A stretch of DNA of 64,000 bases from an uncultured Clostridiaceae bacterium (GTDB lineage: Bacteria; Bacillota; Clostridia; TANB77; CAG-508). Below are positions 1,280 to 49,077 of the stretch, one piece after another. Positions within the stretch are counted from its first letter, which is position 1, and each line of letters starts with the position of its first letter. A program made the position numbers and the translations under genes. The stretch spans positions 15,389 to 79,388 of the forward strand of contig CANRSN010000008.1 of NCBI GenBank assembly GCA_947642455.1, given 5' to 3'. The notes under the pieces were generated by a model, which was not told the DNA's origin, did not search any database, and saw nothing but the letters and a program-made list of their open reading frames with translations.

Positions 1280-1297
1280 ATTTACAAGGAATTTGCT

Positions 1298-2113: not shown

Positions 2114-2156
2114 AACAGGCAACAATTATGAAAAATTGTTATTAAATGAATAATGA

Positions 2157-2756: not shown

Positions 2757-2932
2757 TAAAAATCACACTCCTATTACTTAAAAATTAAATGTGGAAATTA
2801 TTATTAGAAATAATAACAAAAGATTTAAACTAAAAGTATTATATATTGTTTTTCTTAAAATAGCAAGTATTTAAAAAAATTTTATATATAATATGCCAAT
2901 TCTATTGTAAATTCACTGAGGATTATGTATAA

Positions 2933-3220
2933 TTAACTCATAAATTAAATAAGTATGGTAGAGCAAGATTAAATTATCTAAAAACAAATAAAAAAGCAGA
3001 ATATATGATAATGTTTACAAAGGGAATGCTTAATAATCACCTAAAAAAAATACAAGAAACAGCACAAGAAAGATTAGATTTTATGATAAACGAGCTAGTA
3101 AAAAAAGAAAATATTACAGAAGAATTAAAAGCAAAAAATCAATTAGCTTGGGTAGCAGCAATGAATTCTATTAAAGTACAAGCAGAAGAAATTATATATA
3201 ATGAGTTAATTTATGTATAA
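2933..3220 (+). pseudogene. TnpV-like protein, N-terminally truncated
   Basis: The open frame from 2933 reads 'KYGRARLNYLKTNKK..' and ends '..WVAAMNSIKVQAEEIIYNELIYV', which resembles TnpV of Tn4451-type mobilisable transposons. There is no start codon before the conserved region. Confidence 0.45.
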
Positions 3221-3281
3221 AAATTTATCCTAATTTATAACTGATTTTTAGTAAATCAAGAATAATCAGCAAATGTAAAGT

Positions 3282-3365
3282 GTGAGTACAACCTAAAAAT
3301 ATTGATTTAGCAAGCAACGTATTTGTACTCACGCCACAAATACAGGTAAGAATGGGACAAGTCCC
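3282..3365 (+). other. oriT-like hairpin region, copy 2, upstream of mobC/relaxase
   Basis: IR gtgagtaca (3282-3290) / tgtactcac (3324-3332), IR atttgt/acaaat (3321-3341), and hairpin gggac-aa-gtccc (3354-3365). It sits directly 5' of the relaxosome genes. Confidence 0.45.
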
Positions 3366-3437
3366 AAACCCTAATATAAAAAATAGAAAGTGAGATGATA
3401 AATTATAAGAAATAGAAATATAAAAATAAATATCTTT

Positions 3438-3752
3438 TTGAATGAAGAAGAAAATAGAATATTAAATGAGAAAGTAAAAAAGTCTGGATTAAATAAATCA
3501 GAGTTCTTTAGAAAAATAATTTTAGACTATCAGCTAAAAGAAAAACCAGATGAAAAATTTTATGAAATATTATCACAGCTTCGTGGTATGGCAACAAACT
3601 TAAATCAAATGTCAAGAGTTTATAATCAGTATAAAGGCTATGTAAATGAAAATAAGTATGCAACCTTATATAATCAAATACAAAACTTTATATTAGCATT
3701 AGAAGAAGTTTATCTTATACCAACAAGAAATAAAAATGTTAGTGGGTGGTAA
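3438..3752 (+). CDS. mobC: MobC-type relaxosome accessory protein (ribbon-helix-helix)
   Basis: 'NEEENRILNEKVKKSGLNKSEFFRKIIL' and 'LSQLRGMATNLNQMSR' match the MobC pattern. The frame is open from 3402 (I-I-RNRNIKINIF), so the real start may be a non-ATG codon upstream of the TTG at 3438. Confidence 0.7.
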   Translation: MNEEENRILNEKVKKSGLNKSEFFRKIILDYQLKEKPDEKFYEILSQLRGMATNLNQMSRVYNQYKGYVNENKYATLYNQIQNFILALEEVYLIPTRNKNVSGW

Positions 3753-3758
3753 TAAAAT

Positions 3759-5049
3759 ATGGCAGTAACAAAAATATGGAAAGTAAAAGACAGATTAGAC
3801 ATAACAATAAACTATGCAGTAAATCGGAGAAAAAACAGAAGAAAAATTATATGTATCAGGTATAAATTGTATGCCTGATACATCATACCAAGAAATGATA
3901 AATGTAAAAAAGCAATTTTTCAAAACAGATGGAATACAATGCTTTCACGCAGTACAATCTTTTGTAAAAGGAGAAATAACACCAGAGCAAGCACACGAAA
4001 TTGGTATGAAACTTGCTGAAGAATTGTGGGGAGATAAATTTCAAGTAGTAGTTACAACGCACTTGAACACAGATAATTTGCATAACCATTTTGTGCTAAA
4101 TTCTGTTTCCTTTTTGGATGGCAAGAAATTCTGTAACACTAAAAAAGATTATGCAATAATGAGAAAAACATCAGATAGACTTTGTGAAGAATATGGATTA
4201 AATGTATTATCACAAGAAGAAAAATATAATAAATATGCTACAAGCAGATTATATAAGGAACTAATGAAAGATTCTATTGACTATGCAATAGAAAATGCAA
4301 AAGATTATAATGAATTTATAAAAGTACTTCAAGATTTAGATTATATAGTTACAGACAAAAATAATATTCTATCTATAAGGCGTGATCCATACAAAAGAAA
4401 CACGAGAATTAAAAGGCAATTTGGTAACAAATATTCAAAAGAAAATATATACAAGAGAATATTAGAAACACAACCATTATACCCTTATTCTTCTAATCCT
4501 ATGGTACTAATTACTAGAACTCTTGAAAATTATAATAAACAAAAAGAAAAACATTATCAAAACAAAGGCTCTATTGGCTATCTTATATATCAATATGAGA
4601 AACTATTTGACATCAGTACAGAAAGTACTTTAAAATCGAATATAACGAAAATAACACCAGAACTAATAGCAGAGATTAAGAAAATGGACGAGTATTCTAA
4701 TCAAGCAAGATTTCTGGCAAAAAACAATATAAATACAGAGCAAGAATTATTAGATTTTGAAAAAGCTGCGTATGAAAGAGTAAATCCTTTAAAAAGTAAA
4801 ATGGAGAATCTTTGGAAAAAACATAAAAGAGCAAAAACAAATGAAGAAAAACAAGCAATAGAAAACGAGATTATAGAAATTTCTAAACAAATTACACCTA
4901 TTGCAGAAGAAATAAGACATTGTAATAATATACTTCAAAGAGTAGAAAAAATTAAGCGACATCAGTTACACGAGCAAATAGAACGAGAAAAAGCACAATT
5001 TGAAAAAGATCAGGAAAAGAATAAAAAAGACAATAACAAAGCAAGGTAG
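3759..5049 (+). pseudogene. MobA/VirD2-family relaxase with a frame break near 3822-3830
   Basis: 'MAVTKIWKVKDRLDITINYAVN' (frame of 3759) continues as 'GEKTEEKLYVSGINCMPDTSYQ..' in the frame of ORF 3871-5049. The HxH-type motif 'NLHNHFV' is present and the C-terminus is coiled-coil. Confidence 0.7.
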
Positions 5050-5171
5050 ATTATTCTATCTTGTTTTGTAAATTTGTTGAAAAAAGTATAAATTTGTGAT
5101 AGTATATGGAAAGAAAAGTAAATATAAAAAAGAACTTTTCATAAAAAACTATTTATTACATAAGGAGGAAC

Positions 5172-5645
5172 ATGGATAGAATACTTGATATTGAAAACAA
5201 CAAAAGAAACGAAAATGTAGAAGTAAATGCATTTATGAAAGAATTAGAAAATGCTTTAAATACTAATAATCTTGCAAATTCAAAGGGTGTATACACGACA
5301 CTATATGATGAAGTTTTGAATGAGATAAATTTAGCAACAAAATACAAAGGCAAATTAAACAGTATTATAAAAGAATGTATGAAAAATGAGTCTTATGAAA
5401 ATGATTTTTGGTATATTAACTATGATAAATCAAAAAATACATTTTCTATGGATTTATATAGTGATGGAAAGTGTCAAAAGTTCCCAATAACTATGCAAGA
5501 TATAAAAGATTACAACTATAAAGTTGGTATGACATATTGGGCATTTGAAGATGGACGTATGTTAGAAGAAGATGCTATAAAGGATAGTATTAAAATTGAT
5601 GTAGATTCTGCCCTAGCAGATTTAGAACGAAGTAATAAAAAGTGA
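5172..5645 (+). CDS. hypothetical protein (157 aa), apparently co-transcribed with nuclease 2
   Basis: RBS 'aaggagga'. The gene ends 8 nt before the start at 5653. Confidence 0.5.
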   Translation: MDRILDIENNKRNENVEVNAFMKELENALNTNNLANSKGVYTTLYDEVLNEINLATKYKGKLNSIIKECMKNESYENDFWYINYDKSKNTFSMDLYSDGKCQKFPITMQDIKDYNYKVGMTYWAFEDGRMLEEDAIKDSIKIDVDSALADLERSNKK

Positions 5646-5652
5646 GAAATAT

Positions 5653-6495
5653 ATGAATAAAGAAGATTTTGAAAAGGCAATTAATGAGTTAATAAATATA
5701 GAGCTAAACAAAATAAAAAAGCATACAGTTGTTATAAATGATGATAAACCATTATTTAATAAAAAAGATTTTGATACTATCGAAGGAAAACCACAGTATT
5801 TTGAATTAGATAATAATGGAAGAAGTAATGGTGCTATTGCTCTTATTAGCAAAAACACATTACCTTTAATTACAAAGAAAAAATTAAAATACCCAGAACC
5901 TAGTAATTGGAATAAAGCTTTTGAAAACAAAAAGCTTTTTGAAAAATGCCATATAATTGCCTATAGCTTATCAGCAAAACTTGCTAATCAAAAAAATATT
6001 TTCATAGGAACAGTGAAATTAAATAAAAGTTATATGAAAAAAGTTGAAAATGAAGTAAAAAAACACATTAATGATAAGTCTGTGAAAATATTGTATAGGG
6101 TTACTGTTAAATACAAAGGTACTAATAAAATTCCAATAGGAGTATTAATAGAGGCTCAATCTATAGATGATAGCTACAGTGTTTGCAGATTTTGTTATAA
6201 TATTCAAAGGGGTAAAAATTTTAGATATAGTAATGGAATGATTATTGGAGAACAACAAATTTGGTCAAAAGTAGTTCAAACAGTAGCAAATAAAATTGCA
6301 AGAAAAAATAATAGAAAAAGTGGATATATAAATTATACTATAAATACTAAAACAAAAACATTTCATTTATATGATAATGATTGCAAACAGTTGCAGAATG
6401 CTGAACCTAAAAATATACAGGAAACAACTGCAACAGAAAAAGATTTACTAGCAGTTGGATTAAAATATTGCAAAAATTGTGTAAAAGATAATTAA
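5653..6495 (+). CDS. DNA/RNA non-specific endonuclease without a signal peptide, with a Cys/His C-terminal module
   Basis: 'KCHIIAYSLSAKLANQKNIFIGT' is paralogous to 1298-2113. The C-terminus reads 'FHLYDNDC..KYCKNC'. No N-terminal hydrophobic segment. Confidence 0.65.
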   Translation: MNKEDFEKAINELINIELNKIKKHTVVINDDKPLFNKKDFDTIEGKPQYFELDNNGRSNGAIALISKNTLPLITKKKLKYPEPSNWNKAFENKKLFEKCHIIAYSLSAKLANQKNIFIGTVKLNKSYMKKVENEVKKHINDKSVKILYRVTVKYKGTNKIPIGVLIEAQSIDDSYSVCRFCYNIQRGKNFRYSNGMIIGEQQIWSKVVQTVANKIARKNNRKSGYINYTINTKTKTFHLYDNDCKQLQNAEPKNIQETTATEKDLLAVGLKYCKNCVKDN

Positions 6496-6529
6496 AATAT
6501 GATTTATTCCAATACGGAGGATAACTAGA

Positions 6530-7527
6530 ATGAGTAATGAAATTGAAAATAATATGAGTTTATTTAATGTAGAAAATATACAAGATAATAATCAATATAA
6601 TTTCAAATATATAGATTTATTTGCAGGAATTGGAGGTATTAGAACTCCATTTCAAAATTTAGGTGGAAAATGTGTTTTTTCATCTGAAATAGATAAATAT
6701 GCTTCTCAAACATATGAAGCTAATTATGGAGAAAAGCCTAGTGGAGATATAACTAAAATATCAGCTGATACAATACCAAATTTTGATGTTTTGCTAGCAG
6801 GATTTCCTTGTCAAGCATTCTCTATAGCAGGAAAAAGAGAAGGATTTAATGACACAAGAGGAACAATGTTCTTTGAGGTTGAAAGAATATTAGAAGAAAA
6901 ACAACCAAAGTGTTTTCTTTTAGAAAATGTAAAAGGATTAACTAACCATGATAAAGGCAAAACATTTCAAACAATGCTAGATATTTTAGAAAACAAATTG
7001 AAATATAAAGTATATCATAAGGTGCTAAAAATTTTGGATTACCCCAAAACAGAGAAAGAATAATGATAGTAGGATTTAAAAATCATGATATAGATTTCCA
7101 TTTCCCAGATGAATCTAATATTCCAACAAAATTAGGAAATATATTAGAAAAAAATCCAGATGATAAATACACAATATCTGATAAAATTTGGGCAAGTCAT
7201 CAAATGAGAAAAGAACGAAACAGAGAAAAAGGAAATGGATTTGGATATTGCTTATTTAATGAAAATTCTGAATATACTAGCACAATATCAGCCAGATATT
7301 ATAAAGATGGCTCAGAGATTTTAATAGATCAATCTAATAAAGGTAAAAATCCAAGAAAATTGACGCCAAGAGAAGTGGCAAGATTACAAGGCTATCCAGA
7401 TTCTTTTAAAATTGTAGTTAGTGATACACAGGCATATAAGCAATTTGGAAACTCTGTACCAGTAAATATGATTGATGCTGTTGCAAAAAAAATGTATGAA
7501 GCACTAAAAGAAGGAGGAGAAATATAA
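6530..7527 (+). pseudogene. DNA (cytosine-5) methyltransferase split by a frameshift at the A5/T4 run 7027-7035
   Basis: ORF1 carries 'FAGIGG', 'PCQAFS' and 'ENVKGL'. The other frame across the junction reads 'AKNFGLPQNRERIMIVGF', and ORF2 carries 'QFGNSVPV'. Confidence 0.8.
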
Positions 7528-7880
7528 TGAATATTACAGAAAATGAATACAGAAATAATCTATTATTTTATACTACATTGAAAGATTTATTAAAATGTCA
7601 ATTAAATGAGAAAAAATTAATGACATTAGAAGAAACTATTGAACAAAATTCTAATTTGTCTTGTAAAAAAATGAAACAATTACTTTCTACTGGAATAGTT
7701 AAAGAAAATACAAAAGTATATGATGATTTAATGATTTTATTAAATTTAGCAAACAATGATAATTATATAATGTGGAAGGATTTACTATTAGTATCCATAG
7801 AATTATTACTTACAAAAGATTTAATATTAGAAGAATCAACATCATATGCTAGAATAAAATATAAAGAAATATTTAGATGA
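7527..7880 (+). CDS. hypothetical protein (117 aa), start overlaps the methyltransferase stop
   Basis: 'taATG' overlap at 7525-7529. No recognisable motif. Confidence 0.4.
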   Translation: MNITENEYRNNLLFYTTLKDLLKCQLNEKKLMTLEETIEQNSNLSCKKMKQLLSTGIVKENTKVYDDLMILLNLANNDNYIMWKDLLLVSIELLLTKDLILEESTSYARIKYKEIFR

Positions 7881-8520
7881 TATAAAAAAAGAAAATAAAT
7901 TCCCAATCTTTCCAAAAGAACTAGATGGAACCAGTGTAAAATCTAAATTAGGCTTTAAATTTATTAAAGAAGCTAAATACCATAATACGAATTTAGAAAG
8001 TGCAGTATATAAGGAAATGTTTACCCAATCGTATCAAACAACAGAAAAACTAAAACAGATTAATACAAAAGAAGAATTTATAAAGGCTGTTACAGGAGCA
8101 ACTAATTATGAAGTAATAGAAGAAAAATTATCAGCAAATGTAGAAAAGTTTATTACTGAATATACAAAAGAGGAAACAAGAATAAAAGATGAAAATGGGA
8201 CTGATGAAATTGGAACTACTCCTGGAGAAATTGCATTAACATTTTATAAATTGAGTTTATCTAATGAATTAGTTAGTGATGTTATTTTAATAGATCAGCC
8301 AGAAGATGACATAAGTATGAAAAGAATTGAAAATTATATGATTGATTATTTTAATAGTATAAGAGATAAAAAGCAAATAATATTTGTTACTCATAATCCG
8401 TTACTTGTAGTTAACCTAGATGTTGATAATGTAATAAACGTATCTAAAGATAGAAAAAATATGATAAGTATACAATCTGGTTGCATAGAAAGTTCTAATA
8501 TGATAGATTTATTGGCTTAT
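7858..8520 (+). pseudogene. ABC/SMC-type ATPase, C-terminal fragment only
   Basis: Signature-like 'TPGE', Walker B 'VILIDQPEDDIS' and H-loop 'IFVTHNP' are present, but there is no Walker A anywhere upstream. The frame is open only from 7858. The 3' end runs into the IS200-like hairpin. Confidence 0.6.
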
Positions 8521-8755
8521 GAAAACCCCGTGTTTTACACGGGGTTCTAAAAGCTTCTAGCTATGAGTAGAAAAAATCCTCCTTTTTGATATAATAGATG
8601 TGGTCGCCAACCGCAAAAAAATCGAAAAGGAGGATTTTGTCATGAAAGACAATAATAGTTTATCACACAGCACATGGAATTGCAAATACCATTTAGTATT
8701 TGCCTCAAAGTACAGAAGAATGCAAATATATGGACAAATAAAGAAAAGAAAATGA
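8521..8755 (+). mobile_element. tnpA: IS200-like left end plus truncated tnpA (37 codons)
   Basis: Hairpin aaccccgtg/cacggggtt (8524-8546). RBS-sequestering stem aaaaatcctccttttt/aaaaggaggatttt (8571-8638). 'MKDNNSLSHSTWNCKYHLVFASKYRR' matches the Y1 transposase N-terminus and is then stopped. Confidence 0.7.
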
Positions 8756-8786
8756 AAGGCAAAGGGTACGAAGGGAAACAGTAATA

Positions 8787-9068
8787 CGAAAAGGAAGAAC
8801 ATATGAAGAATTTAAAGAGTACATAAGTAAGCATCAAGAATGTGCAATTGTAGAGATGGATACAGTTGAAGGAGTCAAAGGTGGTAAAGTATTTTTAACA
8901 TTAATCTTTAGACAAAGTAGATTTATGCTATATATCTAATGGAAAAGAAGACGATGGAATGTGTAGAGAAAGCATTTCAAAATATAAAAGAAATATTAGG
9001 TATAAAAATATTTAAAAAAGTGTTTGAAGTGATATTAACAGATAATGGCTCAGAGTTCTTCAATCCTC
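8787..9068 (+). pseudogene. DDE (rve/IS30-like) transposase internal fragment, frameshifted
   Basis: 'IVEMDTVEGVKGGKVFLTLIFRQSRFML', then in another frame 'LMEKKTMECV..FEVILTDNGSEFFNP'. There is no N-terminal HTH and no C-terminal end. Confidence 0.5.
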
Positions 9069-9985
9069 TATATTTTAGACTTGGTAAGATTGTGAGTGAG
9101 AATGCAAAATATGGGAATAATTTTATTAAAGATTTTTCTATTGCTTTAAAATTAGAATTTCCAGATAGTACAGGTTTTTCTACTAGAAATCTATCAAGAA
9201 TGAAAAAATTTTATGAAGAATATAAAGATTTATCAAATTTGCCAATGGCGTTGGCAAAATTGCCATGGTCACACAATAATCTTCTTTTAGAAAAAATAAA
9301 GGATTTGAATGTTAGAGAGTGGTATGCAGAAAAATGTTTTGAAAATGGTTGGGCTCATTCTGTTTTAGATCATCAAATAGACTTACAATTATATGAAAGA
9401 CAGGCAATTACCGAAAAACTTACAAATTTCAAAGAGAAATTACCTATTTCACAAAGCGAACTTGCAAGAGATGTAATTAAAGACCCATATATTTTTGAAC
9501 TTGAAGGAATTAAAGAAGAAGCTATCGAAAAAGACATTGAAAATGCGATGATGGAAAGAATAAAAAATGTATTACTAGAATTAGGAAAAGGATTTAGCTT
9601 TGTCGGAAATCAATATAAAATTTCTACTGAAAATCAAGATTATTATATTGATATGTTATTTTACCATTTAGACTTAAGATGTTATATTGTTGTTGAGTTA
9701 AAAAATAATGAATTTAAGCCAGAATATACTGGACAATTAAGTTTTTATGTAACAGCTGTTGATGAAACGTTGAGAAAAGAACAAGACAATCAAACTATTG
9801 GGCTATTACTTTGTAAAGGAAAAGATAAATTATCAGTGGAATGGGCTTTAAAAGGAACAAATGCCCCTATCGGTGTTACTTCTTATGAAGTTAGAAACGA
9901 ATTACCAAAAGAAATATTAGACAAGTTACCTACTGAAGAAGATATAAATAAACATATTGATATAAATGAAGAAAATAAGGAGTAA
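9069..9985 (+). pseudogene. YhcG/DUF1016-type PDDEXK nuclease, N-terminally truncated and fused in frame to the transposase fragment
   Basis: 'FPDSTGFSTRNLSRMKKFYEEY', 'LPWSHNNLLLEK' and 'DMLFYHLDLRCYIVVELK' (D..E-L-K core). Confidence 0.55.
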
Positions 9986-9992
9986 TATAAAT

Positions 9993-10496
9993 ATGGAAGA
10001 TGAAATTTTAGAAATATTGAATATTATAATAAATAATATAAGCAATGAGATTATACCTCAAAATGAAAGAGAAAAGATTGTATATAATATTAATAAAAAT
10101 AGTTCAATTTCTTTTATGGTATTTAAAAATATACTATTAAAGATTACATTTCAAAAAACAAGGATGTTTATTGAAATTAGGAAATTAGAGAATATTAACT
10201 TGGATGAGTTGTCAAAGAAATTTGAAGAAATTAAATACAAAGAAGATAAGTTATACATAAAAATATACATAAACGAAATTAAAGATATAAATAAAATAAA
10301 CAATGAAGTAAAAGAAATATATAAATACTTATATTCAAATGAACCTGTTGAAAATTATGGATGTTGTTCTAGATTTACAGAATGTTCAGATGCATTAAAA
10401 TGTATCAATCCAGATAAGAAATTAGCAAAAGGTTGTCAATATAGAGAAAATCTTGAATCAGGCAAAATATTTTATGGAATAAATAAAAATATATAA
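9993..10496 (+). CDS. hypothetical protein with a Cys-rich C-terminal module
   Basis: C-terminus 'YGCCSRFTECSDALKCINPDKKLAKGCQYRENLESGKIFYG'. The start was chosen at 'MEDEIL'. Confidence 0.45.
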   Translation: MEDEILEILNIIINNISNEIIPQNEREKIVYNINKNSSISFMVFKNILLKITFQKTRMFIEIRKLENINLDELSKKFEEIKYKEDKLYIKIYINEIKDINKINNEVKEIYKYLYSNEPVENYGCCSRFTECSDALKCINPDKKLAKGCQYRENLESGKIFYGINKNI

Positions 10497-10508
10497 AAGG
10501 AGAATCTT

Positions 10509-11591
10509 ATGTTTGGTATTGAAATAAAAACAAGAATTACTGAAGACGGAAAAATTGAAACGATAATAGATGATGGAACAGATTCAAAAAGACATAAAAG
10601 AAATAAAAAAGGTATTAGTATTATAGATAGCATTAAAGATTATTGTGTTATTGATATAGAAACAACGGGACTTGATTCTAAATATGATGAAATTATTGAA
10701 ATTAGTGCATTAAAAGTAAGAGATAATAAAATCATTGATACATATACAAATTTAGTAAAACCTAAGCAAAGAATTTTTGTTAATAATAATGATGATGAAA
10801 CTGATTTTTGCATAGAAGGTGGAGAGAAAGTAAAGTATATAGATAACTTTATAACGGAGTTAACAGGTATAACTAATAAAATGCTTGAAAATGCTCTAGA
10901 TATTAGTGAAGTTTTATCATCATTTAATGAGTTTATAAATAATGATATATTGATAGGTCATAATGTTAATTTTGATATAAATTTTTTATATGATAATAAT
11001 ATGGAATATTTGCAAAAGCCTCTAACAAATAATTTTATAGATACATTAAGAATAGCAAGAAGAATTTTACCAGAATTAAAACACTATAGATTAGATGATT
11101 TGATAGAATATTTTAATAAACAAAAAAGAAATGAACATAGAGCTTTAAATGATTGTATTTTAACTAATGAAGTCTATACTGAATTGATATCTTTAGCAGT
11201 AGATAAGTTTGAAACTGTTGAAAATTTTAAAAATCAATTAAAAAAACATCATTCATCATCTTCAATAAAAGCAAAAGAAATAGTAGCAGAAACTACTGAA
11301 TTTGATGAAGAAAACCCTTTATATGATAAAGTATGTGTTTTTACAGGTACATTAGAAAAAATGTTACGAAAAGATGCGATGCAAAGTGTAGTTAATTTAG
11401 GTGGAATCTGTGGAGATTCTGTTACTTCTAAAACAAATTATTTAATATTGGGAAATAATGAGTATTGCCAAAATATAAAAGGTGGAAAAAGTAATAAACA
11501 GAAGAAAGCAGAGAAACTAAAAGTTAAAGGACAAGATATAGAAATTATATCTGAGAATGTCTTTTATGATATGGTAGAAGGTCGAGAATAA
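10509..11591 (+). CDS. DnaQ-like 3'-5' exonuclease fused to a C-terminal BRCT domain
   Basis: ExoI 'VIDIETTGLD', ExoII 'GHNVNFDINFL', ExoIII 'HRALNDC'. BRCT-like 'VCVFTGTLEKM..KTNYLILGN'. Confidence 0.7.
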   Translation: MFGIEIKTRITEDGKIETIIDDGTDSKRHKRNKKGISIIDSIKDYCVIDIETTGLDSKYDEIIEISALKVRDNKIIDTYTNLVKPKQRIFVNNNDDETDFCIEGGEKVKYIDNFITELTGITNKMLENALDISEVLSSFNEFINNDILIGHNVNFDINFLYDNNMEYLQKPLTNNFIDTLRIARRILPELKHYRLDDLIEYFNKQKRNEHRALNDCILTNEVYTELISLAVDKFETVENFKNQLKKHHSSSSIKAKEIVAETTEFDEENPLYDKVCVFTGTLEKMLRKDAMQSVVNLGGICGDSVTSKTNYLILGNNEYCQNIKGGKSNKQKKAEKLKVKGQDIEIISENVFYDMVEGRE

Positions 11592-14563: not shown

Positions 14564-14662
14564 GGAAAATGAATAACCGTAGTGAATGCGGTTACCACTA
14601 CATATAGTTATAACAACAAATTCGCGATTTGGTAGAGAGCAGAATGTGTTGTTATTTTTATT
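14564..14662 (+). ncRNA. candidate ~100-nt sRNA or leader
   Basis: Lies downstream of the consensus promoter. Hairpin taaccg/cggtta (14574-14594), then stem ataacaaca/tgttgttat (14610-14655) followed by tttttatt. No ORF. Confidence 0.3.
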
Positions 14663-14998
14663 CCTTATCTATTATTGAATTTACATATTTTATGTATAAA
14701 ATCGCCAATAAGGTTACGTTTATAGTTGTAGAAGCCATTAAGGATTTTTTATTTTCTAACATTTCTAACAATTTTTATTTATAACTCCATTTGTAATAGT
14801 AACTGAAATTATATTGTGTATATTACAAAGAATGATAAGAATAATATATTCATTGGAACAGACGATTTAAATAAAACTATTATGAATGATGTTGAAGGTG
14901 AAGTAGAACAATATATAAAAGAAAATAAAGATAAGTATATAAGAATCTAAGAAAAGTTTAAAGAAAAAGTAAAATAAATAAAAGAAAGAGGTAGTAAG

Positions 14999-15613
14999 AT
15001 GAGTGCAAATGATTATTTCAAAAATGATGAATATTGGGCTAATCATATAAATAAAGATTTGGAAGAAGATTTATGGATAGATGAGTATAAGACATACCTG
15101 AATTTAAAAGGTAAATGCTTGGATTTAGGTTGTGGAATTGGGCAATATTCAAAACAACTTATTAAGTATGGATATGATGTAATATCAGCAGATATATCAG
15201 ATATAGCTTTAAATAAAGTTAAAAGTTTTAATGAAAATATAGTGAAATTAGATATGAGAGATAAGTTTCCTTTTCCAGATAATGAATTTGACTTAGTGTT
15301 TGCAAATTTATCTATTCATTATTTTTCTGATGAAGATACTAGAAAGTTAATGCTAGAAATAAAAAGAATTATAAAAGAAGATGGATTATTCATTGGAAGT
15401 GTTAATGGAATTGAAGGATTAAAAGTAATAAGAAGTGAAGCCAAAGAAATTGAATATCATTTTTACGAGTATAAAGATAAACTAATAAGATTATTTGATA
15501 TCAATGATATAGAAAAATATTTAGCTGACTTTAATATTATAAAAATAGATGAGAGAGAAACTATAAGATTCAAAAATAAAAAGAATTATATAGTGTTTAT
15601 TGCAAAAAAATAA
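14999..15613 (+). CDS. class I SAM-dependent methyltransferase
   Basis: Motif I 'CLDLGCGIGQYS', with an acidic residue at 'ISADIS'. Confidence 0.7.
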   Translation: MSANDYFKNDEYWANHINKDLEEDLWIDEYKTYLNLKGKCLDLGCGIGQYSKQLIKYGYDVISADISDIALNKVKSFNENIVKLDMRDKFPFPDNEFDLVFANLSIHYFSDEDTRKLMLEIKRIIKEDGLFIGSVNGIEGLKVIRSEAKEIEYHFYEYKDKLIRLFDINDIEKYLADFNIIKIDERETIRFKNKKNYIVFIAKK

Positions 15614-15638
15614 ACTAAAGGTATTCTTGAATATAAGC

Positions 15639-15667
15639 TTGCAGTTTTATGTGAAATGTTATATAAT
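15639..15667 (+). promoter_or_regulatory. promoter TTGCAG-N17-TATAAT
   Basis: ttgcag-ttttatgtgaaatgtta-tataat. Confidence 0.45.
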
Positions 15668-15711
15668 ATTACTTAAAAAGGACTTTTTTATAACTTAATT
15701 CCTGTATTCAC

Positions 15712-15790
15712 TAATTAGTGGAGGAAGTATCCTCATACTTTTTGGTTTAACATATATAACAAGAAAACAACAATAAAAGGAAATGGAGGA
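15712..15790 (+). repeat. structured leader, copy L (inverted partner at 19321-19398)
   Basis: About 80% identity to the reverse complement of 19321-19398. Includes hairpin gagga-agta-tcctc and the RBS ggagg. Confidence 0.6.
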
Positions 15791-15797
15791 TCTTATT

Positions 15798-16049
15798 ATG
15801 AACGATGAAAAAAAGATGAACAGTTTAAGGACAGTAGTTCGGAATAGCAAATTTATACCTATGCTTGTCCTGATATTCATTGAAATGCTTGCAGTAGGGC
15901 GTGTGCTTTTGTGTATTCTTATTTTGCTTTTTATTACCATTGAATTGGTTTTAAGTGGAATTTTAAAAGACAGTAAAGGAATTGTAGCAGGTAGTGCGTG
16001 GTATGTATTATGGTTAATTGCTTTAATTGTAAACTTGTTCAGAATTTAA
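15798..16049 (+). CDS. small hydrophobic membrane protein (83 aa)
   Basis: RBS 'aatggagg' upstream of the ATG at 15798. Contains 2-3 predicted TM helices. Confidence 0.5.
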   Translation: MNDEKKMNSLRTVVRNSKFIPMLVLIFIEMLAVGRVLLCILILLFITIELVLSGILKDSKGIVAGSAWYVLWLIALIVNLFRI

Positions 16050-16266: not shown

Positions 16267-16284
16267 ATGAAATTTATGTTATCA

Positions 16285-16347
16285 GTTTTTTGAAAAAGGT
16301 GTCAATAGTTTTTTGAAAAAGGTGTCAATAGTTTTTTGAAAAAGGTC
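16285..16347. repeat. 23-bp tandem direct repeat, 2.7 copies
   Basis: gttttttgaaaaaggtgtcaata occurs twice, followed by the partial copy gttttttgaaaaaggtc. Confidence 0.9.
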
Positions 16348-16457
16348 GAAAAAATCAATAAAAAATGATATACTAATTATGTTAATTTTTTAATCCTGTT
16401 TTACAGGTTGATATATAGACTGCAAATGTAAAATAATTATTTTAAGGAGGGTTTTAT

Positions 16458-16946: not shown

Positions 16947-16993
16947 TTGAAACACAAAGACTGTTTGTTGCTGAAAAGATATCAAACATTTTT

Positions 16994-17157
16994 TATACAA
17001 TAAGAAAGTCATACTGACTTTTCTTATTGTATAAAAAGCTTCGCAAACATTGTGCACAAATTTAAAAAAAATTTGGCACAGAACAAATTTACGGAAAGCC
17101 AAAGAGAAGAGTTAAAGTTGTGCTAAATTAAAGGCTTTCCGATTTGTTCTATTTTTT
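16994..17157 (+). repeat. three-hairpin intergenic element H1
   Basis: Hairpin A tatacaataagaaagtca/tgacttttcttattgtata, linker aaaagcttcgc, hairpin B, and hairpin C gaacaaatttacggaaagcc/ggctttccgatttgttc followed by a T-run. Homologous to 18971-19131. Confidence 0.7.
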
Positions 17158-17168
17158 AGTCATTTCTA

Positions 17169-17196
17169 TTGCGATTTATTAAAATTATGATATACT
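17169..17196 (+). promoter_or_regulatory. promoter TTGCGA-N16-(TG)TATACT
   Basis: ttgcga-tttattaaaattatga-tatact. Confidence 0.4.
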
Positions 17197-17231
17197 TTAA
17201 TACATCATAAAAATGCAAGGAGGAAACGAAA

Positions 17232-18203
17232 ATGACAAATGGCATTATTTCAAAAGCAAATTCAAAAGAGAAGGAAATGTTAGAACGGTTAAAACTATTA
17301 GAGCAAAGCTTAGTAAGCAAATCAGAAATTAGTATTATTGGTCATGATAACATTGACGTTGATGCTGTTTTATCTGGAGTGTTACTTTCAAGGTTGCTCA
17401 AGTTCTTGAACATCAATGCTAACTTCATAATTTTACAACCTATTAGAAAACATAATACCTACGAAATTGTAAGTGAGTTAACGGGTGTTAATATGTATTC
17501 TTATGAAGAAAAAAACGAAAAAGAGTTACGGAATCTCTTTTTAGTTGACCACTATGAGACAACACACAAAGGGAAGGTGGTTGGATGCATTGATCATCAT
17601 CCAACAGAAAAAGAAAATACGTATGAATTTTCATATGTAAGAAACAGTTCAGCTACAGCCTATTTGGTTTATGAATTGATGAAAATAGCAAATTATCCTT
17701 TAACAGCCGAAGAAGCTAAAATGATTATTGTTTCAATGATGATAGATACAACAGCATTTAAAAGTAGTAAAACAGTATCAGAGGAAGTTGAAGTTGCAAA
17801 AATTCTTGCAAAAAAATTTAATCTTGACTATGAGTATTTAGAAAGGTATTGTCTTTGCTTAACTCCTATTGAAAAAATGAACATTGATGAAATAACGTCA
17901 AATGGACAAAAGGAGTATAATTATAATGCACATAAGGTAAAGTCTGCTTATTTGCAACTTTATGGTATGCCAGATGAAGCAACAATAAACAAATGGCTTA
18001 CTTATTTAAAAAGTAAAGTTTCAGGTAAAACATCAAGTATCGAAATGATGGTATTTATTATTTTTGATACAAAATCAAATATTACTTATGAATATCAAGT
18101 AATGCAGTATTATGCAAAAAAGATTATTCATAATGGAATATTATCAAGAGGAAAAGATATTATGCCTGAAATTGAAAAAAGATATTGCAATGTAAAAAGC
18201 TAA
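17232..18203 (+). CDS. DHH-family phosphoesterase
   Basis: 'IIGHDNIDVDAV' (motif I/II), 'CIDHHPT' (DHH), and a DHHA-like C-terminal half. Confidence 0.7.
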   Translation: MTNGIISKANSKEKEMLERLKLLEQSLVSKSEISIIGHDNIDVDAVLSGVLLSRLLKFLNINANFIILQPIRKHNTYEIVSELTGVNMYSYEEKNEKELRNLFLVDHYETTHKGKVVGCIDHHPTEKENTYEFSYVRNSSATAYLVYELMKIANYPLTAEEAKMIIVSMMIDTTAFKSSKTVSEEVEVAKILAKKFNLDYEYLERYCLCLTPIEKMNIDEITSNGQKEYNYNAHKVKSAYLQLYGMPDEATINKWLTYLKSKVSGKTSSIEMMVFIIFDTKSNITYEYQVMQYYAKKIIHNGILSRGKDIMPEIEKRYCNVKS

Positions 18204-18417
18204 GCTAAGAAAGATTTTGGTAATCAAAGGAATTTGCTGAATTTTTATACCGTTAGTAAGCAAAATTATTAAAAAACTAAACAATTTTGTCTAGTTTTTT
18301 AGATCTCTTTAATTAATATTAAGCTAGAATAAGTCATATCTGTATGACATAAAAGTTTCTAGAGGAAAAATAGAAGAAACTTTTAAAACTATTTTACACT
18401 ATGATGATTCTAAAATG

Positions 18418-18446
18418 TTGACATTTTATGTAAAATATGATATAAT
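18418..18446 (+). promoter_or_regulatory. promoter TTGACA-N17-(TG)TATAAT
   Basis: ttgaca-ttttatgtaaaatatga-tataat. Confidence 0.55.
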
Positions 18447-18594
18447 AAACATGTACAATATATTTATTTGAGATTGAGAATATTTTCTTGATTGATTCGC
18501 CACATTATAGGTGGTAAGAAATCAAGAGTAGCTCATTGAAGGAAAAAATAGTAAAACAAAAAATAATAAGAATAATTTACAGGAGGATTTTACT

Positions 18595-18864
18595 ATGAAG
18601 GCATTTGAAGTACGGAAAGCATCTGTTCAGCCACAGTACGATGTAGCAATGAAAGACATTGAACAGGCAAAGGAATGGGGATGGAAAAGTGCCCATGTAG
18701 GTCGTGGTACTTTGTACACTGAAGTTGCAGAAATGCTCGCCAATGATGGTTTTGATATCAAAATTGTCAAAAGAGCCAATGACTGCATGTCGTACAATGA
18801 GGTTTCTTGGGAAAATGCAGAAGAAGGCAAGAGGGGAACTATTACTTATGTAGATGAAACTTAG
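18595..18864 (+). CDS. hypothetical protein (89 aa), may continue to 18911 after a frame break
   Basis: RBS 'aggagg'. Past the TAG, the other frame encodes the acidic tail 'EEGTNEEDETDTETE' ending in taataa. Confidence 0.5.
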   Translation: MKAFEVRKASVQPQYDVAMKDIEQAKEWGWKSAHVGRGTLYTEVAEMLANDGFDIKIVKRANDCMSYNEVSWENAEEGKRGTITYVDET

Positions 18865-18970
18865 AAGAGGGAACCAACGAAGAAGATGAAACCGACACTG
18901 AAACTGAATAATAAGGCAAACGCAATGTGAAACTCTTGGAGAGGACTGGTATTACACTAGTTCTCTTTTT

Positions 18971-19131
18971 TATACAATAGGAAAGCATAGCAATTTGTTA
19001 TACTTTCCTATTATATAAAAGCTTCGCCAAACGTTCCATACAAAATTGCTAAAGCAATTTTGGCGGCGAACAAAGACGAGGCATAAAAAGTAATCTAAAA
19101 GGTAAATGTTTTAATCATGCCTCTTTTGTTC
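18971..19131 (+). repeat. three-hairpin intergenic element H2
   Basis: Same architecture as H1. The stems have different sequences but remain complementary (gaacaaagacgaggcat/atgcctcttttgttc). Confidence 0.7.
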
Positions 19132-22951: not shown

Positions 22952-24118
22952 ATGGAAGAAAATATTGAATTAAAAGTAGTATCTGATATAGATACAAAAG
23001 AAGTTGAAACAGCATTATTACAAACTAAAAAAGTAACAGAGGAGGTAGTAGAAAAATCATTAAATTATGATGCATTATTACCAGAAGAGAAGAAAGCAAT
23101 AGACGAATTCTTGGAAAAAGTAGATGTAAGTAATACTGCACAAGTTTTACAATATGGAGCAAGTGCACAAAATAATATATCTAAGTTTTCAGATAGTGTA
23201 CTTCAAGATGTGAAAACAAAAAGTACAGGAGAAGTTGGAAATTTATTATCAGATTTAGTTGTTCAAATAAAAGATTTTGACACAGATATAGAAGAAGGAG
23301 GAAAAACAGGATTATTTGCAATATTTAACTCTGCTAAAAAACAAGTAGAAAAGATAGTAGCAAAATATAATAAGGTAGAAAATAATATAGCTAAAATAGA
23401 AAAAGAGTTAGAAAGTCATAAAATTCAAATGATGAAGGATATAGCTATATTTGATACAATGTATGAAAAAAATTTACAATATTTTAAAGAATTGTCTTTA
23501 TACATAATTGCTGGAGAGAAAAAGCTAGAAGAATTAAGAAATGTTGTATTGCCAGAAATGCAGAAAAAAGCTACAGAAAGTAAAGATCAGATAGATGCAC
23601 AAGCAGTAAATGATATGGTAAATACAATAAATCGTTTTGAAAAGAAAATATATGATTTAAAAACTACAAGAATAATATCAATTCAAATGGCACCACAAAT
23701 TAGATTAATACAAAATAATGATAGTGAATTGGTTGAAAAAATACAAAGTTCTTTAATAAATACAATTCCACTTTGGAAAAATCAAATAGTAATAGCACTA
23801 GGTTTAACTAATGCAAAAAGTGCTTTGGGAGCTCAAAAACAAGTAACTGATATGACAAATGAAATGTTAAAGAAAAATAGTGAATTGTTAAAACAAGGAA
23901 CAATAGAAATTGCAGCAGAATCAGAAAAGGCTATCGTCGATGTTGCAACACTTCAAAAAACAAATCAAGATATTATAGAAACTTTAGATAAGGTAATCGA
24001 AATCCATGAAGAAGGTAGAACTCAAAGAAAAATAGCAGAGGCAGAATTAGAAAATATAGAAGGTCAATTAAAAGATAAACTTTTAGAAATAAAAATTGCT
24101 AGTGGAAAAGAGGAATAA
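22952..24118 (+). CDS. telA: TelA/YaaN-family toxic anion resistance protein
   Basis: The length, all-helical character and conserved N-terminal region 'VLQYGASAQNNISKFSD' fit the TelA family (from memory). Confidence 0.65.
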   Translation: MEENIELKVVSDIDTKEVETALLQTKKVTEEVVEKSLNYDALLPEEKKAIDEFLEKVDVSNTAQVLQYGASAQNNISKFSDSVLQDVKTKSTGEVGNLLSDLVVQIKDFDTDIEEGGKTGLFAIFNSAKKQVEKIVAKYNKVENNIAKIEKELESHKIQMMKDIAIFDTMYEKNLQYFKELSLYIIAGEKKLEELRNVVLPEMQKKATESKDQIDAQAVNDMVNTINRFEKKIYDLKTTRIISIQMAPQIRLIQNNDSELVEKIQSSLINTIPLWKNQIVIALGLTNAKSALGAQKQVTDMTNEMLKKNSELLKQGTIEIAAESEKAIVDVATLQKTNQDIIETLDKVIEIHEEGRTQRKIAEAELENIEGQLKDKLLEIKIASGKEE

Positions 24119-24258
24119 TGTTTCGTAGTAGTTACAATATTTTATTAAAAAATTACATAAAGTATTGCAAATTTATGTCAAGTATGCTAAAATATAGCGT
24201 AGATGGTAAGAACCATAATGTAAATAAGTATAAAAAACACATTTTTAAGGAGGACAAT

Positions 24259-25713
24259 ATGAAAGTGAAGCGGTTATTTTTAAATCTTTTAGTATCAACT
24301 TTTATAGCAATTGGTGGTATTACAGCAAATGCAACAGAAAACGAGCGGGCAGAATTGCCATATGTAGTGGAAGAAGGCAGTGTATATTTTGATAGCTGTG
24401 AGAATTTTGGCAGTGGGGCAAGTAGAGTAGTAAACAAGGAAAATGAGTATGTCACTGTTCCCTGTTATGCAGGTATTAATGGCTATGCTTATGTAGATGC
24501 TAATGGTCATACTATGGAATATAAGTATGACGAAGCCACAAATAATATTGAAATTCCCGAAGCGCCACAAGGTGCAGTAATGTTATTTAAACATTTTAGG
24601 AGCGAGAATTACAGAAATGGCTGGGTTGCAGCAGATAAGGTGAAAGAAAGAGAAGAAAATGGCATTTCAGAAATTCCTGAAGCAGAAGTAGAAACAGAGA
24701 ATGAAGTAGAGCTTCAGCCAGATGTGTTATTGGATGAAGAAACACAGAAAATGGAATTTACAGAATATTCTAATGAAACTGTACCAGAGTTAGAAACACA
24801 GCAGGAACCAAAAGTTGCAGTAGTTGTGCAACCTATTATACCAACAGTAAAAGTTATTGATGCAACATCTGAGGGAAAAGAAAAAAGGCAAAGGCAATAT
24901 GATATTGCAAAGGCAAAAGCTCAGGAGCTTGAAGGAGAAACCGAAGCTAACAATGAAAATCAGGAGACTTCAAATGAGGTTGAAACAATATCAGGAGAGG
25001 AGACTAAATCTGCAGTAAGGGTAATAGATGCAACATCTGAAGGAAAGGAAAGACGTCGCAAAGAAGCACAGAGCGAAATGGAACAGGAGACTTCAAATGA
25101 GGTTGAAACAATATCAGGAGAGGAGACTAAATCTGCAGTAAGGGTAATAGATGCAACATCTGAAGGAAAGGAAAGACGTCGCAAAGAAACACAGAGCGAA
25201 ATGGTAGCAAAGGTAGCACGTGAAGAGAAAGAAGATATAATATCAAATACTTCACAAACTATAGTGGATAACATATTAGAAAATATTGACATAAAGAATG
25301 AGTTAGAACCTCAAGTAGCAACCAATAGTGAAATTAGCGAAGAAACAACTGAAGGAGGAAGTCAACCACCAGCAAACAATGAAAATATTGAGGTAGCAAT
25401 AGAAGGAGGAAGTCAACCGCCAGCAGACAATGAAAATGTTGAGGTAGCAATAGAAGGAGGAAGTCAACCGCCAACTGATAATGAAAATGTTGAAGGAGTA
25501 ACTGAAGTAAACAACGAAGTTGTAACAAGTGTGAGCGAAACAGGAAATAGCCAAGTGGCTAAACTTATAAATGTAACAATAAACAACAGCGATGGTACTG
25601 TTAATCAAATACAAGTAGCAGTAAATATTCCAAATGAGTTTGTCAGTGAAGAGGAATTAAATCAATTAATTGATATGCTAGATTTAGCGAATATCAATAT
25701 TTATCAAAAATAG
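24259..25713 (+). CDS. secreted acidic tandem-repeat protein
   Basis: RBS aaggagg. Signal peptide 'MKVKRLFLNLLVSTFIAIGGITANA'. Contains 41-aa x2 and 17-aa x3 repeats. Confidence 0.7.
   Translation: MKVKRLFLNLLVSTFIAIGGITANATENERAELPYVVEEGSVYFDSCENFGSGASRVVNKENEYVTVPCYAGINGYAYVDANGHTMEYKYDEATNNIEIPEAPQGAVMLFKHFRSENYRNGWVAADKVKEREENGISEIPEAEVETENEVELQPDVLLDEETQKMEFTEYSNETVPELETQQEPKVAVVVQPIIPTVKVIDATSEGKEKRQRQYDIAKAKAQELEGETEANNENQETSNEVETISGEETKSAVRVIDATSEGKERRRKEAQSEMEQETSNEVETISGEETKSAVRVIDATSEGKERRRKETQSEMVAKVAREEKEDIISNTSQTIVDNILENIDIKNELEPQVATNSEISEETTEGGSQPPANNENIEVAIEGGSQPPADNENVEVAIEGGSQPPTDNENVEGVTEVNNEVVTSVSETGNSQVAKLINVTINNSDGTVNQIQVAVNIPNEFVSEEELNQLIDMLDLANINIYQK
24961..25206 (+). 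repeat. 123-bp near-identical tandem repeat x2 inside a CDS
   Basis: 'caggagacttcaaatgaggttgaaac...' restarts at 25084. A diverged partial copy lies around 24852. Confidence 0.9.
25351..25503 (+). repeat. 51-bp tandem repeat x3 inside a CDS
   Basis: 'gaaggaggaagtcaacc(a/g)cc...' begins at 25351, 25402 and 25453. Confidence 0.9.
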
Positions 25714-28031: not shown

Positions 28032-28046
28032 TCAGAAACTATCAGC

Positions 28047-28263
28047 AAAAAAGAGTACAATTTGTTACATTTCACAGATATAATATTCACTTAAGTACTA
28101 TAATATTTATTTTGACAAAGTTTTGCTTAAGGGAAGCTCCTAAAGTGGACACGACCCAGAGCTACCTACGAAGCCAGTAAGAAACTTTGTCAAAATAAAT
28201 ATTATAGTACTTATATGATTCTGATTCTAATCTGTGAAATGTAACAAAATGTACTCTTTTTTT
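28047..28263 (-). repeat. nested-palindrome element P1 (core on the minus strand)
   Basis: Outer arms 28047-28079 / 28230-28263, inner arms 28090-28124 / 28183-28213. They enclose the core 'gggaagctcctaaagtggacacgacccagagctacctacgaagccagtaag'. Confidence 0.85.
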
Positions 28264-47248: not shown

Positions 47249-47263
47249 TTTAATAACAATATT

Positions 47264-47486
47264 CAGAAAAAAAGAGTACAATTTGTTATAATTCATAGTT
47301 TGAAATTATAAACCTATAGGCAATATAATATTTATTTTAACGAAGTTTTTTACTGGCTTCGCCAATCGCTCTGGGTCACTTCTACTGTGGGAGCTTCCCT
47401 GCGCAAAACTTCGTTAAAATAAATATTATATTGCTTAAATAGATATTAATATCTTGAATTATAACAAATTGTACTCTTTTTTTCTG
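47264..47486 (+). repeat. nested-palindrome element P2 (core on the plus strand)
   Basis: Outer arms cagaaaaaaagagtacaatttgttataattca / tgaattataacaaattgtactctttttttctg, inner arms 47320-47348 / 47406-47434, core 47349-47405. Confidence 0.85.
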
Positions 47487-47574
47487 AATAATATAAGTCA
47501 TATAAAAGAGAATATTATTCCAATAAAATGGAATAATATTCTTTATATATGTTTGTAAAAGAAGGTGTTAAAAC

Positions 47575-49062: not shown

Positions 49063-49077
49063 AGGTATCATATAATC

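Follow-up and report, generated by a model that had tools for sequence, protein, structure and literature searches.

A three-hairpin repeat family positioned on terminator T-runs in Clostridia

Introduction

Several kinds of small structured repeat have been described between bacterial genes. The BOX elements of Streptococcus pneumoniae, along with RUP and SPRITE (Croucher et al. 2011, PMC3049150), are small, non-coding, multi-copy intergenic repeats assembled from the modules boxA, boxB and boxC, with extensive secondary structure; they are co-transcribed with their neighbours, lack a transposase of their own, and are thought to be parasitic with a slow turnover. Repetitive extragenic palindromic (REP) units are 20-40 nt in length and carry a GTAG or CGTC tag (PMC3733652). 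Such units, and the bacterial interspersed mosaic elements (BIMEs) that they form, are palindromic, extragenic, located at gene 3' ends and often clustered, with effects on termination and mRNA stability, and their mobilisation in trans by a hairpin-binding HUH enzyme (RAYT, TnpA-REP) has been proposed. Repeats of the bcr1 type are also mentioned in the literature (PMC3184786). In the present study, we analysed a 64,000-nt stretch of DNA from an uncultured Clostridiaceae bacterium (contig CANRSN010000008.1, assembly GCA_947642455.1; hereafter, the window), which carries two full copies (H1 and H2) and one partial copy (H3) of a repeat that we term the H element. The H family is apparently previously uncatalogued and belongs with the small structured interspersed repeats.

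Further systems offer points of comparison. The bcr1 repeat of the Bacillus cereus group is reportedly ~155 nt in length, intergenic and transcribed, with a stable predicted fold and the characteristics of a mobile element; it is associated with a TTTAT target duplication and is confined to one species group. Group IIC introns preferentially insert just 3' of intrinsic terminator stem-loops and are oriented as the terminator is, and group II introns are at least 600 nt in length, with domains I-VI and usually a reverse transcriptase. Palindrome-associated transposable elements (PATEs) derived from IS200/IS605 are strand-specific and carry hairpins, but neither terminal inverted repeats nor a target duplication; they insert 3' of a short target, and in IS200/IS605 the hairpins at the left and right ends are similar to one another. 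Finally, the attC sites of integrons are imperfect palindromes of 55-140 nt between genes, in which structure is kept over sequence, and which act as single-stranded DNA.

Results

Architecture and selected structure of the H unit

The full H unit is a non-coding, strand-specific element of ~125-175 nt composed of three modules. The first, hairpin A, is a perfect palindrome of 41-55 nt with an arm, TTTTATATAATAGGAAA, that is conserved in AT-rich and GC-rich hosts alike. Next come a short single-stranded linker (GCTYCGC), hairpin B, in which the shape but not the sequence is kept and the paired positions covary, and hairpin C, an intrinsic-terminator-like stem that ends in CTTTGTTC or CTTTTTT. 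Copies from AT-rich hosts read AAAAGCTTCGCTAAACATTCCACACAAATTTT...AAAATTTGGCGGGCGAACAAAGACGAGGCATGA...TCATGCCTCTTTTGTTC, which is almost the sequence of H2, and those from GC-rich Lachnospiraceae read AAAAGCGCTCCGCTAAGGATGCGCACTCGCGCG...CGCGCTCAGCGCGAGCATATCGCAAGCGATATGCTTTTTT. On one side, the palindromes matched by a hairpin A pattern are followed by the linker and the hairpins B and C known from H1 and H2, and the arms of H2 hairpin C recur near-identically at five other loci (L019, L063, L086, L089 and L106).

In the window, H1 (16990-17149), H2 (18966-19131) and the partial H3 (51529-51595) all follow this one three-hairpin design. The initial annotation had placed two full copies and a third, hairpin-A-only copy in these positions, and all were recovered there with small boundary adjustments, the third being 3'-truncated; the anchors it had named, TATACAATA(A/G)GAAAG, AAAAGCTTCGC and GAACAAA...TTTGTTC, are likewise all present in H copies. 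On folding, the predicted hairpins formed in each copy, with minimum free energies of -55.6, -48.6 and -47.2 kcal/mol for H1, H2 and H3, respectively, and z-scores of -8.4, -5.9 and -9.0; none of 200 dinucleotide shuffles (0/200) matched the native stability. The hairpin A sequences of H2 and H3 are 94% identical across 65 nt in a repeat scan. H3 comprises hairpin A and the start of the linker (Table 1), beyond which (after 51595) the sequence is unrelated, and this arrangement, at a site between convergent genes, is identical in other assemblies.

The secondary structure of the H unit is under selection. Compensatory change between H1 and H2, which had been proposed from these two copies, is real and was confirmed at the family level against shuffled and slid controls. 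In a seed alignment of AT-rich copies (A2; aligned with MAFFT and not fitted to a structure), the RNAalifold consensus comprises 42 pairs, and standard pairs occupy 94.0% of the cells versus 45-52% when the partners are slid by 1-3 columns. Changes on both sides occur at 17 pairs, as opposed to 6-9 in the slid controls, and the covariation score is 0.261 as opposed to 0.03-0.07. On four of five measures the observed values were reached by 0/500 column shuffles, whereas the fifth, the count of further pair types, was reached by 25/500. The swaps are illustrated by hairpin B, with GC:10/CG:8 at one pair and AU:9/UA:9 at another. An independent alignment of 18 GC-rich copies recovered hairpins A and C; one example of its pairs is GC:8 UA:5 CG:4 AU:1. 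Variation in hairpin A is rare and affects the two arms jointly (T:A to C:G, G:C to A:T). On the strand shown, G-U pairs outnumber A-C mismatches by 57 to 20, an excess that favours folding of this strand, either as RNA or as single-stranded DNA. The loop of hairpin A is also biased in orientation, with 37 CTCC-type against 6 GGAG-type loops, and the loops are CU-rich.

Hairpin C takes two forms. In GC-rich copies, a 9-bp stem with a GCAA-type loop is followed by CTTT(G/T)TT and constitutes a canonical intrinsic terminator, whereas hairpin C of H1 and H2 has, above its stem base GAACAAA/TTTGTTC, an AU-rich loop of 30-40 nt, and in neither copy was it called by a simple terminator scan. The whole H unit is more than a terminator.

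Position relative to genes and terminators

The position of H units on terminator T-runs is fixed. Context was counted for n=74 oriented units. The upstream gene is co-oriented in 57/68 cases, at a median gap of 53 nt, and the 42 nt immediately upstream of the units fold with a mean of -12.5 kcal/mol, compared with -4.1 for random positions and -3.8 on the downstream side. In 74% of cases, versus 29% at random positions, a stem of 6 bp or more ends no further than 4 nt from the unit, and the flank sequences illustrate that the upstream terminator stem runs directly into the TTTTT that opens hairpin A. In the window, H1, H2 and H3 each lie behind a terminator, namely those of a 162-aa open reading frame (ORF), an 89-aa ORF and a DUF6514 ORF, respectively (Table 1). 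Of the downstream genes, 38 are co-oriented and 23 convergent, and some copies end 10-40 nt ahead of the downstream start codon. Others lie inside operons; one is located between trpG and trpD, 3' of a T-box leader, and must therefore be co-transcribed. The G-rich strand holds 59/74 of the units, a bias that is inseparable from gene orientation. Clustering of 1163 ORFs from 111 loci revealed no protein family that recurs beside H units except common ABC transporters, and no gene travels with them.

Spread, copy number and arrays

A pattern scan for hairpin A (TATAYAATARGAAA-N8-30-TTTCYTATTRTATAAAA) over one genome per prokaryotic species gave at least 111 loci in ~60 assemblies among the matches listed. 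All of these matches are from Bacillota, mostly Clostridia, and the carriers among them include Lachnospiraceae, Eubacterium, Butyrivibrio, Faecalicatena, Mediterraneibacter, Acetatifactor, Aminipila, Oscillospiraceae, Geosporobacter and Mobilitalea, as well as many metagenome-assembled genomes (MAGs) from rabbit, ruminant, chicken and Hadza gut. Several assemblies gave many contigs each, and at least 15 contigs of one rabbit MAG were matched. A family covariance model, a check that the initial annotation had suggested, was built on 19 full-length copies (A2, R1) and returned further copies in very large numbers, with >70 full-length units in the fetched loci at scores of 75-170 bits. With filters off, the model scored H2 at 125, H1 at 112 and H3 at 49 bits, and no other comparable score was obtained within the 64-kb window.

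In rodent-gut metagenomes, the depth on H1 and H2 is 20-30x that of the unique flanks and derives from at least 17-25 distinct contigs. Copy number per genome is estimated at tens, and is only an estimate because the depth is metagenomic. In several runs, Logan contigs of 1942 bp extend exactly from 17079 to 19020, which implies that the assembly graph has branch points within H1 and immediately behind hairpin A of H2. Within single genomes, the identity between H copies ranges from 60% to 98%; the near-identical sets in some genomes suggest recent amplification, and H subfamilies are common to different genomes. Copies that are 3'-truncated in the manner of H3 are numerous.

In rabbit-gut MAGs, six loci (L024, L051, L090, L021, L045 and L104) contain head-to-tail arrays of 2-4 units with a period of ~153 nt. 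The array junction reads ...TTGTTC|TATAATAGGAAA, and the left arm of each following hairpin A opens with TTGTTC or TTGTTA instead of TTTTTA. Such arrays would result if units inserted repeatedly 3' of one and the same TTTTTA, although unequal recombination could generate them too.

Searches of Rfam 15 in both gathering and E-value modes, with the window and 18 loci that included GC-rich copies, gave no match on the elements, and the best sub-threshold matches are chance matches to miRNA and snoRNA families. No match to the H family was obtained by blastn in plasmid and phage collections, and the strict hairpin A pattern gave 0 matches in viral contigs; a relaxed pattern returned 4 weak short hairpins of 24-30 bits from one sample of viral contigs, which were rejected as members of the family. 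Full-text literature searches by topic and by literal motif returned no description of the H family.

A 12-mer in common with a second repeat family

The initial annotation had remarked that the loop of hairpin A contains a 12-mer also found in another palindrome, and this observation is borne out. The 12-mer CAATTTGTTATA is exact in H2 (18991), in H3 (51554) and in a palindrome copy at 47259-47487 (at 47279, and at 47460 on the minus strand). Allowing no more than one mismatch, 9 matches were found in the window where 2.7 were expected, and 0/100 shuffles reached 9. The palindrome represents a second repeat family, with copies at 28041-28262, 47259-47487, 49072-49195 and 63879-63963. It is a long imperfect palindrome of ~230 nt with outer arms CAGAAAAAAAGAGTACAATTTGTTA..., inner arms AATATTTATTTTAACGAAGTTTT... 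and an asymmetric core of ~55 nt; the core of the 28041 copy is inverted relative to that at 47259, and the 49072 and 63879 copies are partial. Besides the 12-mer, which also occurs in the loop of hairpin A in H2 and in H3, this family has GGCTTCGCCAA in common with the linker of some H elements.

The DHH locus between H1 and H2

The interval between H1 and H2 contains a gene for a DHH-family phosphoesterase and the 89-aa ORF (Table 1). The initial annotation had interpreted the two repeats as boundaries of a cassette; its structured repeat family with compensatory change stands, whereas the cassette boundary does not. On the cassette interpretation, H1 and H2 would be recombination sites, either attC-like or the ends of a composite transposon, around a mobile DHH unit. 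It draws on the direct orientation of H1 and H2, 1977 bp apart, on a DHH neighbourhood that varies among relatives, on the 1942-bp contigs that cover 17079-19020, and on weak metagenome joints with sides of 22-30 nt (e.g. 17151 to 19027).

The identity between H1 and H2 is, however, low at 66.5% (62% with hairpin A excluded). The nearest copy to H1 (L037, 76%) is in an unrelated MAG, and those nearest to H2 are L086, L063 and L019 (76-78%); since each is nearer to copies in other genomes, the two are not the duplicated ends of one event but old copies that belong to different subfamilies. Homologues of the DHH protein number 287, many of them fused to CinA/PncC, and those at 87%, 74% and 68% identity occupy three different neighbourhoods, none with an H element. 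DNA homology to the 87% relative is confined to 17179-18187 and starts within the promoter-like site of the DHH gene, just past H1. The DHH gene and the 89-aa ORF each have a promoter-like site of their own, the latter a perfect TTGACA-17-TGnTATAAT at 18418-18446. Hairpin C ends in GTTCTAT, which does not fit the attC consensus GTTRRRY, and a scan of ~40 window ORFs found no integrase and no transposase.

Metagenome joints and other assemblies were also unfavourable to a cassette, with no circular junction and no empty site. None of the joints cleanly removes or circularises 17158-18965; their sides are only 22-30 nt in length, and further copies of the repeat are the best explanation for them. 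The 1942-bp Logan contigs were considered as a circle and rejected as such, as they reflect breaks of the assembly graph at repeats, which account for the contig ends. The order H1-DHH-ORF89-H2 is the same in all assemblies with identical flanking proteins and in every strain recovered. H copies elsewhere do not bracket single genes; where a locus has several, they stand in tandem or in direct or inverted orientation, with arbitrary distances between them. We therefore consider a mobile cassette to be very improbable and largely refuted. The DHH gene, an ordinary gene that forms no part of the H element, is in a variable region, and two H units happen to sit behind terminators on either side of it.

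Several further observations concern this locus. Many close DHH relatives (up to 86% identity) are ~480 aa in length with a C-terminal CinA/PncC (nicotinamide-nucleotide amidohydrolase) domain; the window DHH ORF (323 aa) is followed by 390 nt without an ORF. At the locus of the 74% relative (L118), a Gate-domain gene lies directly 3' of the DHH-CinA gene, and in the window a Gate-domain (nucleoside recognition) gene at 51928-53001 on the minus strand adjoins H3. The occurrence of a Gate-domain gene near both H3 and DHH-CinA may hint at rearrangement between H copies. Contigs from one mouse and one rat metagenome connect ~16450-16454 directly to 17175, the shorter side of the joint being only 22-28 nt; the putative variant would lose the 162-aa ORF as well as H1.

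Table 1. Features at the H1, H2 and H3 sites (window coordinates)
Feature	Positions	Strand	Basis or remark
Terminator-like hairpin of the 162-aa ORF, TGTTTG...CAAACA, upstream of H1	16963-16989	+	T-run enters the first H1 bases
H1 hairpin A, near-perfect palindrome TTTTTATACAATAAGAAAG-loop-CTTTTCTTATTGTATAAAAA	16990-17037	+	Sequence, fold, covariance model
H1 linker, conserved GCTTCGC motif	17038-17051	+	
H1 hairpin B, GTGCACAAATTT...AAATTTGGCAC	17052-17079	+	Fold; covarying helix 2
H1 hairpin C, GAACAAATTTACGGAAAGCC...GGCTTTCCGATTTGTTC	17081-17149	+	Terminator-like 3' module; T-rich tail to 17157
DHH promoter-like site, TTGCGA-16-TATACT	17169-17196	+	
DHH-family phosphoesterase gene, 323 aa	17232-18203	+	Pfam DHH, E = 8.7e-11
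89-aa ORF, no assigned function	18595-18864	+	Own terminator precedes H2
Terminator-like hairpin of the 89-aa ORF, AGAGGACT...AGTTCTCT	18940-18965	+	T-run common to H2 hairpin A
H2 hairpin A, enlarged loop containing CAATTTGTTATA	18966-19020	+	
H2 linker, GCTTCGCCAAACGTT	19021-19035	+	
H2 hairpin B	19036-19066	+	Centroid fold; covariation
H2 hairpin C, GAACAAAGACGAGGCAT...ATGCCTCTTTTGTTC	19068-19131	+	Sequence, fold
Terminator hairpin of the 92-aa DUF6514 ORF, directly 5' of H3	51488-51528	+	
H3, hairpin A (51529-51583) and first 12 nt of linker, GCTTTGCTAAGC	51529-51595	+	3'-truncated

Window setting and neighbouring features

The window has a G+C content of 23-34% and positive GC skew throughout, with almost all genes on the plus strand, and contains sporulation-type genes (DUF1256, M50 peptidase, Spo0A_C). 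Its sequence is matched by MAG GCA_949742625.1 and by mouse and rat gut metagenomes. On these grounds, the host is a low-GC, uncultured Clostridia member of the rodent gut; an origin in Fusobacterium or SFB, which the G+C content had brought into consideration, was rejected in view of the MAG match and the sporulation genes. A block at 536-11591 resembles a mobile element or defence island and encodes a D12 adenine methyltransferase, two ORFs with non-specific endonuclease domains, a YhcG PDDEXK nuclease and a DEDDh exonuclease-BRCT protein; a fragment of a MobA/VirD2 relaxase nuclease domain is located at 3871-5049, and a C5 cytosine methylase is split across two ORFs (6530-7063 and 7063-7527). 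Upstream of the 162-aa ORF, 2.7 copies of a perfect tandem repeat with a 23-bp unit, AGTTTTTTGAAAAAGGTGTCAAT, occupy 16284-16346; the copy number differs in other assemblies, and blast alignments break at 16300 and 16330. At 24845-25204, a 121-123-nt tandem duplication of 99% identity is present inside a 531-aa ORF (24118-25713) without a Pfam match. In gut metagenomes, additional short stretches of high depth occur at 14640-14780, 15585-15801 and 18421-18449, the last of which overlaps the consensus promoter of the 89-aa ORF; at 2-6x the depth of the flanks, they imply further small repeats in the region.

Discussion

A probable structure-dependent interspersed repeat

We consider the H family to be, more likely than not, a non-autonomous, structure-dependent interspersed repeat of the BOX/REP/bcr-like kind, with side effects on termination or RNA processing. 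Under this model, a putative enzyme acting in trans, which would recognise either the structure or hairpin A, would copy units to new sites next to terminator T-runs. Hairpin A is the candidate recognition module, being the only module conserved in sequence. Insertion 3' of TTTTTA would explain head-to-tail arrays at a single target. In a read-through transcript, an H unit would present a second terminator and a perfect RNA duplex of ~20 bp. By analogy with the Correia elements and their processing by RNase III, the duplex would be a likely substrate of this enzyme, and the transcript would be insulated or processed. H1 and H2 would then represent independent old insertions behind the terminators of two consecutive transcription units, the 162-aa ORF and the 89-aa ORF.

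A number of points weigh against this interpretation. Neither an empty site nor a presence/absence polymorphism was found in the strains and loci compared, so that mobility is inferred only; when flanks were compared between loci, all against all, the orthologues that emerged were all occupied, and a relative of locus L074 without the element was rejected as a clean empty site on account of a left flank that is not homologous. The flanks and nearby ORFs revealed no terminal inverted repeats, no target-site duplication and no candidate transposase. Class-wide conservation of the hairpin A sequence, the conserved linker, the loop bias and the 3' terminator would likewise be compatible with a functional RNA gene. 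With regard to expression, rodent metatranscriptome contigs are too sparse to inform, and the putative RNA runs of a human-gut carrier display a flat, DNA-like depth. The copy-number estimates are metagenomic, and related species may add to the depth.

The principal rival is a family of multi-copy genes for small RNAs or cis-regulatory RNAs, which we regard as unlikely, albeit to be taken seriously. On this account, TATAAT or TATAAA in the hairpin A arms would serve as a -10 element, with transcription starting near the linker, GCUYCGC acting as a single-stranded seed, and hairpin B leading to hairpin C as the terminator; in a variant, the whole unit would be a module of leaders or 3'-UTRs to which a global RNA-binding factor binds. 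The canonical terminator at hairpin C of GC-rich members, the strand-specific covariation with its G-U excess, and the conserved linker are in agreement with such a role, as are the CU-rich, anti-Shine-Dalgarno-like hairpin A loops in their 37 to 6 orientation, the copies that lie 10-40 nt before a start codon, and the fragments of other H copies in metatranscriptome contigs. Conversely, there is no conserved -35 element, and a promoter scan of H1 and H2 was not convincing. Tandem arrays, 3'-truncated and intra-operon copies, a gene neighbourhood that is not conserved, and near-identical, amplification-like copies within some genomes likewise tell against an RNA gene, as does the absence of the family from Rfam 15.

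Conservation of the hairpin A arm across families, while B and C drift, and the paired changes that keep the palindrome symmetric would equally be expected of host-domesticated punctuation, in which hairpin A binds a conserved host protein (nucleoid, Xer-like or replication factor), the remainder is accessory, and the elements persist through host use. Copy number and positions nevertheless vary among genomes, arrays and truncated copies occur, and we know of no binding protein for hairpin A; the arm has what we take to be a likeness to an arm of the Firmicutes dif site, but with inverted geometry, and this was counted against the proposal, which we consider rather improbable. That the H copies are ordinary terminators with coincidental similarity has a negligible likelihood and is already refuted: all three window copies are indeed located at gene 3' ends and carry a terminator-like hairpin C, yet the three-module architecture with its anchors recurs in >70 copies from ~60 genomes at 75-170 bits, and a separate terminator precedes the H units.

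A sharper proposal, which we offer tentatively and rate as possible but doubtful, is that the H unit represents a class-wide type of element new to the literature and is one of two things: an element that copies itself specifically onto the T-runs of intrinsic terminators via a hairpin-recognising enzyme in trans, or a multi-copy regulatory RNA unit, horizontally spread among gut Clostridia, that would comprise promoter, RNA and terminator. In either case, recognition would be through hairpin A (TTTTATATAATAGGAAA-loop-TTTCCTATTATATAAAA).

The strict terminator placement and the near-invariant palindrome point to a specific recognition machinery, which could be a transposition system or an RNA- or DNA-binding factor. 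In practical terms, a repeat present in an estimated tens of copies breaks short-read assemblies, as exemplified by the 1942-bp contigs, and its copies can pass for the borders of cassettes or islands. Transcript ends and operon insulation in abundant gut bacteria are probably shaped by H units, and the family covariance model would improve the annotation of Clostridia genomes and MAGs.

Comparison with described systems

Several described systems correspond to the H family in part. The classical MITE (a miniature transposable element with inverted repeats) is likewise small, non-coding and multi-copy, but assignment to this class was rejected; the ends of H, 5'-TTTTTATATAATAGG and TTGTTC(TATA)-3', are not inverted copies of one another, and the flanks carry no constant duplication. 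Membership of the attC sites was also rejected. Hairpin C starts with ...CAGAAC or GCGAAC and ends with GTTCTAT, GTTCTGG or GTTCTTG, in which the fourth base is C and not a purine, and H accordingly lacks the RYYYAAC/GTTRRRY core sites; no intI was found in the window scans, the flanked genes possess their own promoter-like sites, and the copies are dispersed rather than gathered in one array beside an integrase. Group IIC introns have only the terminator preference in common with H, which at ~160 nt is far shorter, and were rejected with no Intron_gpII or group-II-D1D4 match in Rfam. The lack of a duplication, the head-to-tail array junctions and the placement after TTTTTA, a possible target that is inferred from these junctions only, would be compatible with a PATE; unlike in PATEs, hairpins A and C are dissimilar, and no Y1 transposase recurs nearby in the ORF clustering of 111 loci.

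REP units were rejected as a home for the family on size and the missing tag. H is a ~125-175-nt composite of three different hairpins, of which hairpin A (41-55 nt) has no GTAG or CGTC tag, and no RAYT gene is known to be linked to the family. In the way it works, H is nonetheless closest to BOX and to REP/BIME. In comparison with bcr1, no duplication was seen for H, and H is class-wide. BOX is unrelated to H in sequence and is confined essentially to pneumococcus and S. mitis, whereas H extends across many families of Clostridia; H is further set apart from BOX by its strict position on terminator T-runs, its strand specificity, a terminator as the 3' module and the conservation of the hairpin A sequence across hosts. 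In a functional sense, as opposed to one of homology, H nonetheless falls within the BOX-like class, being modular, intergenic, multi-copy and strongly folded without a gene of its own, and within this class its unusual traits are the class-wide spread, the invariant palindrome and the docking on terminators.

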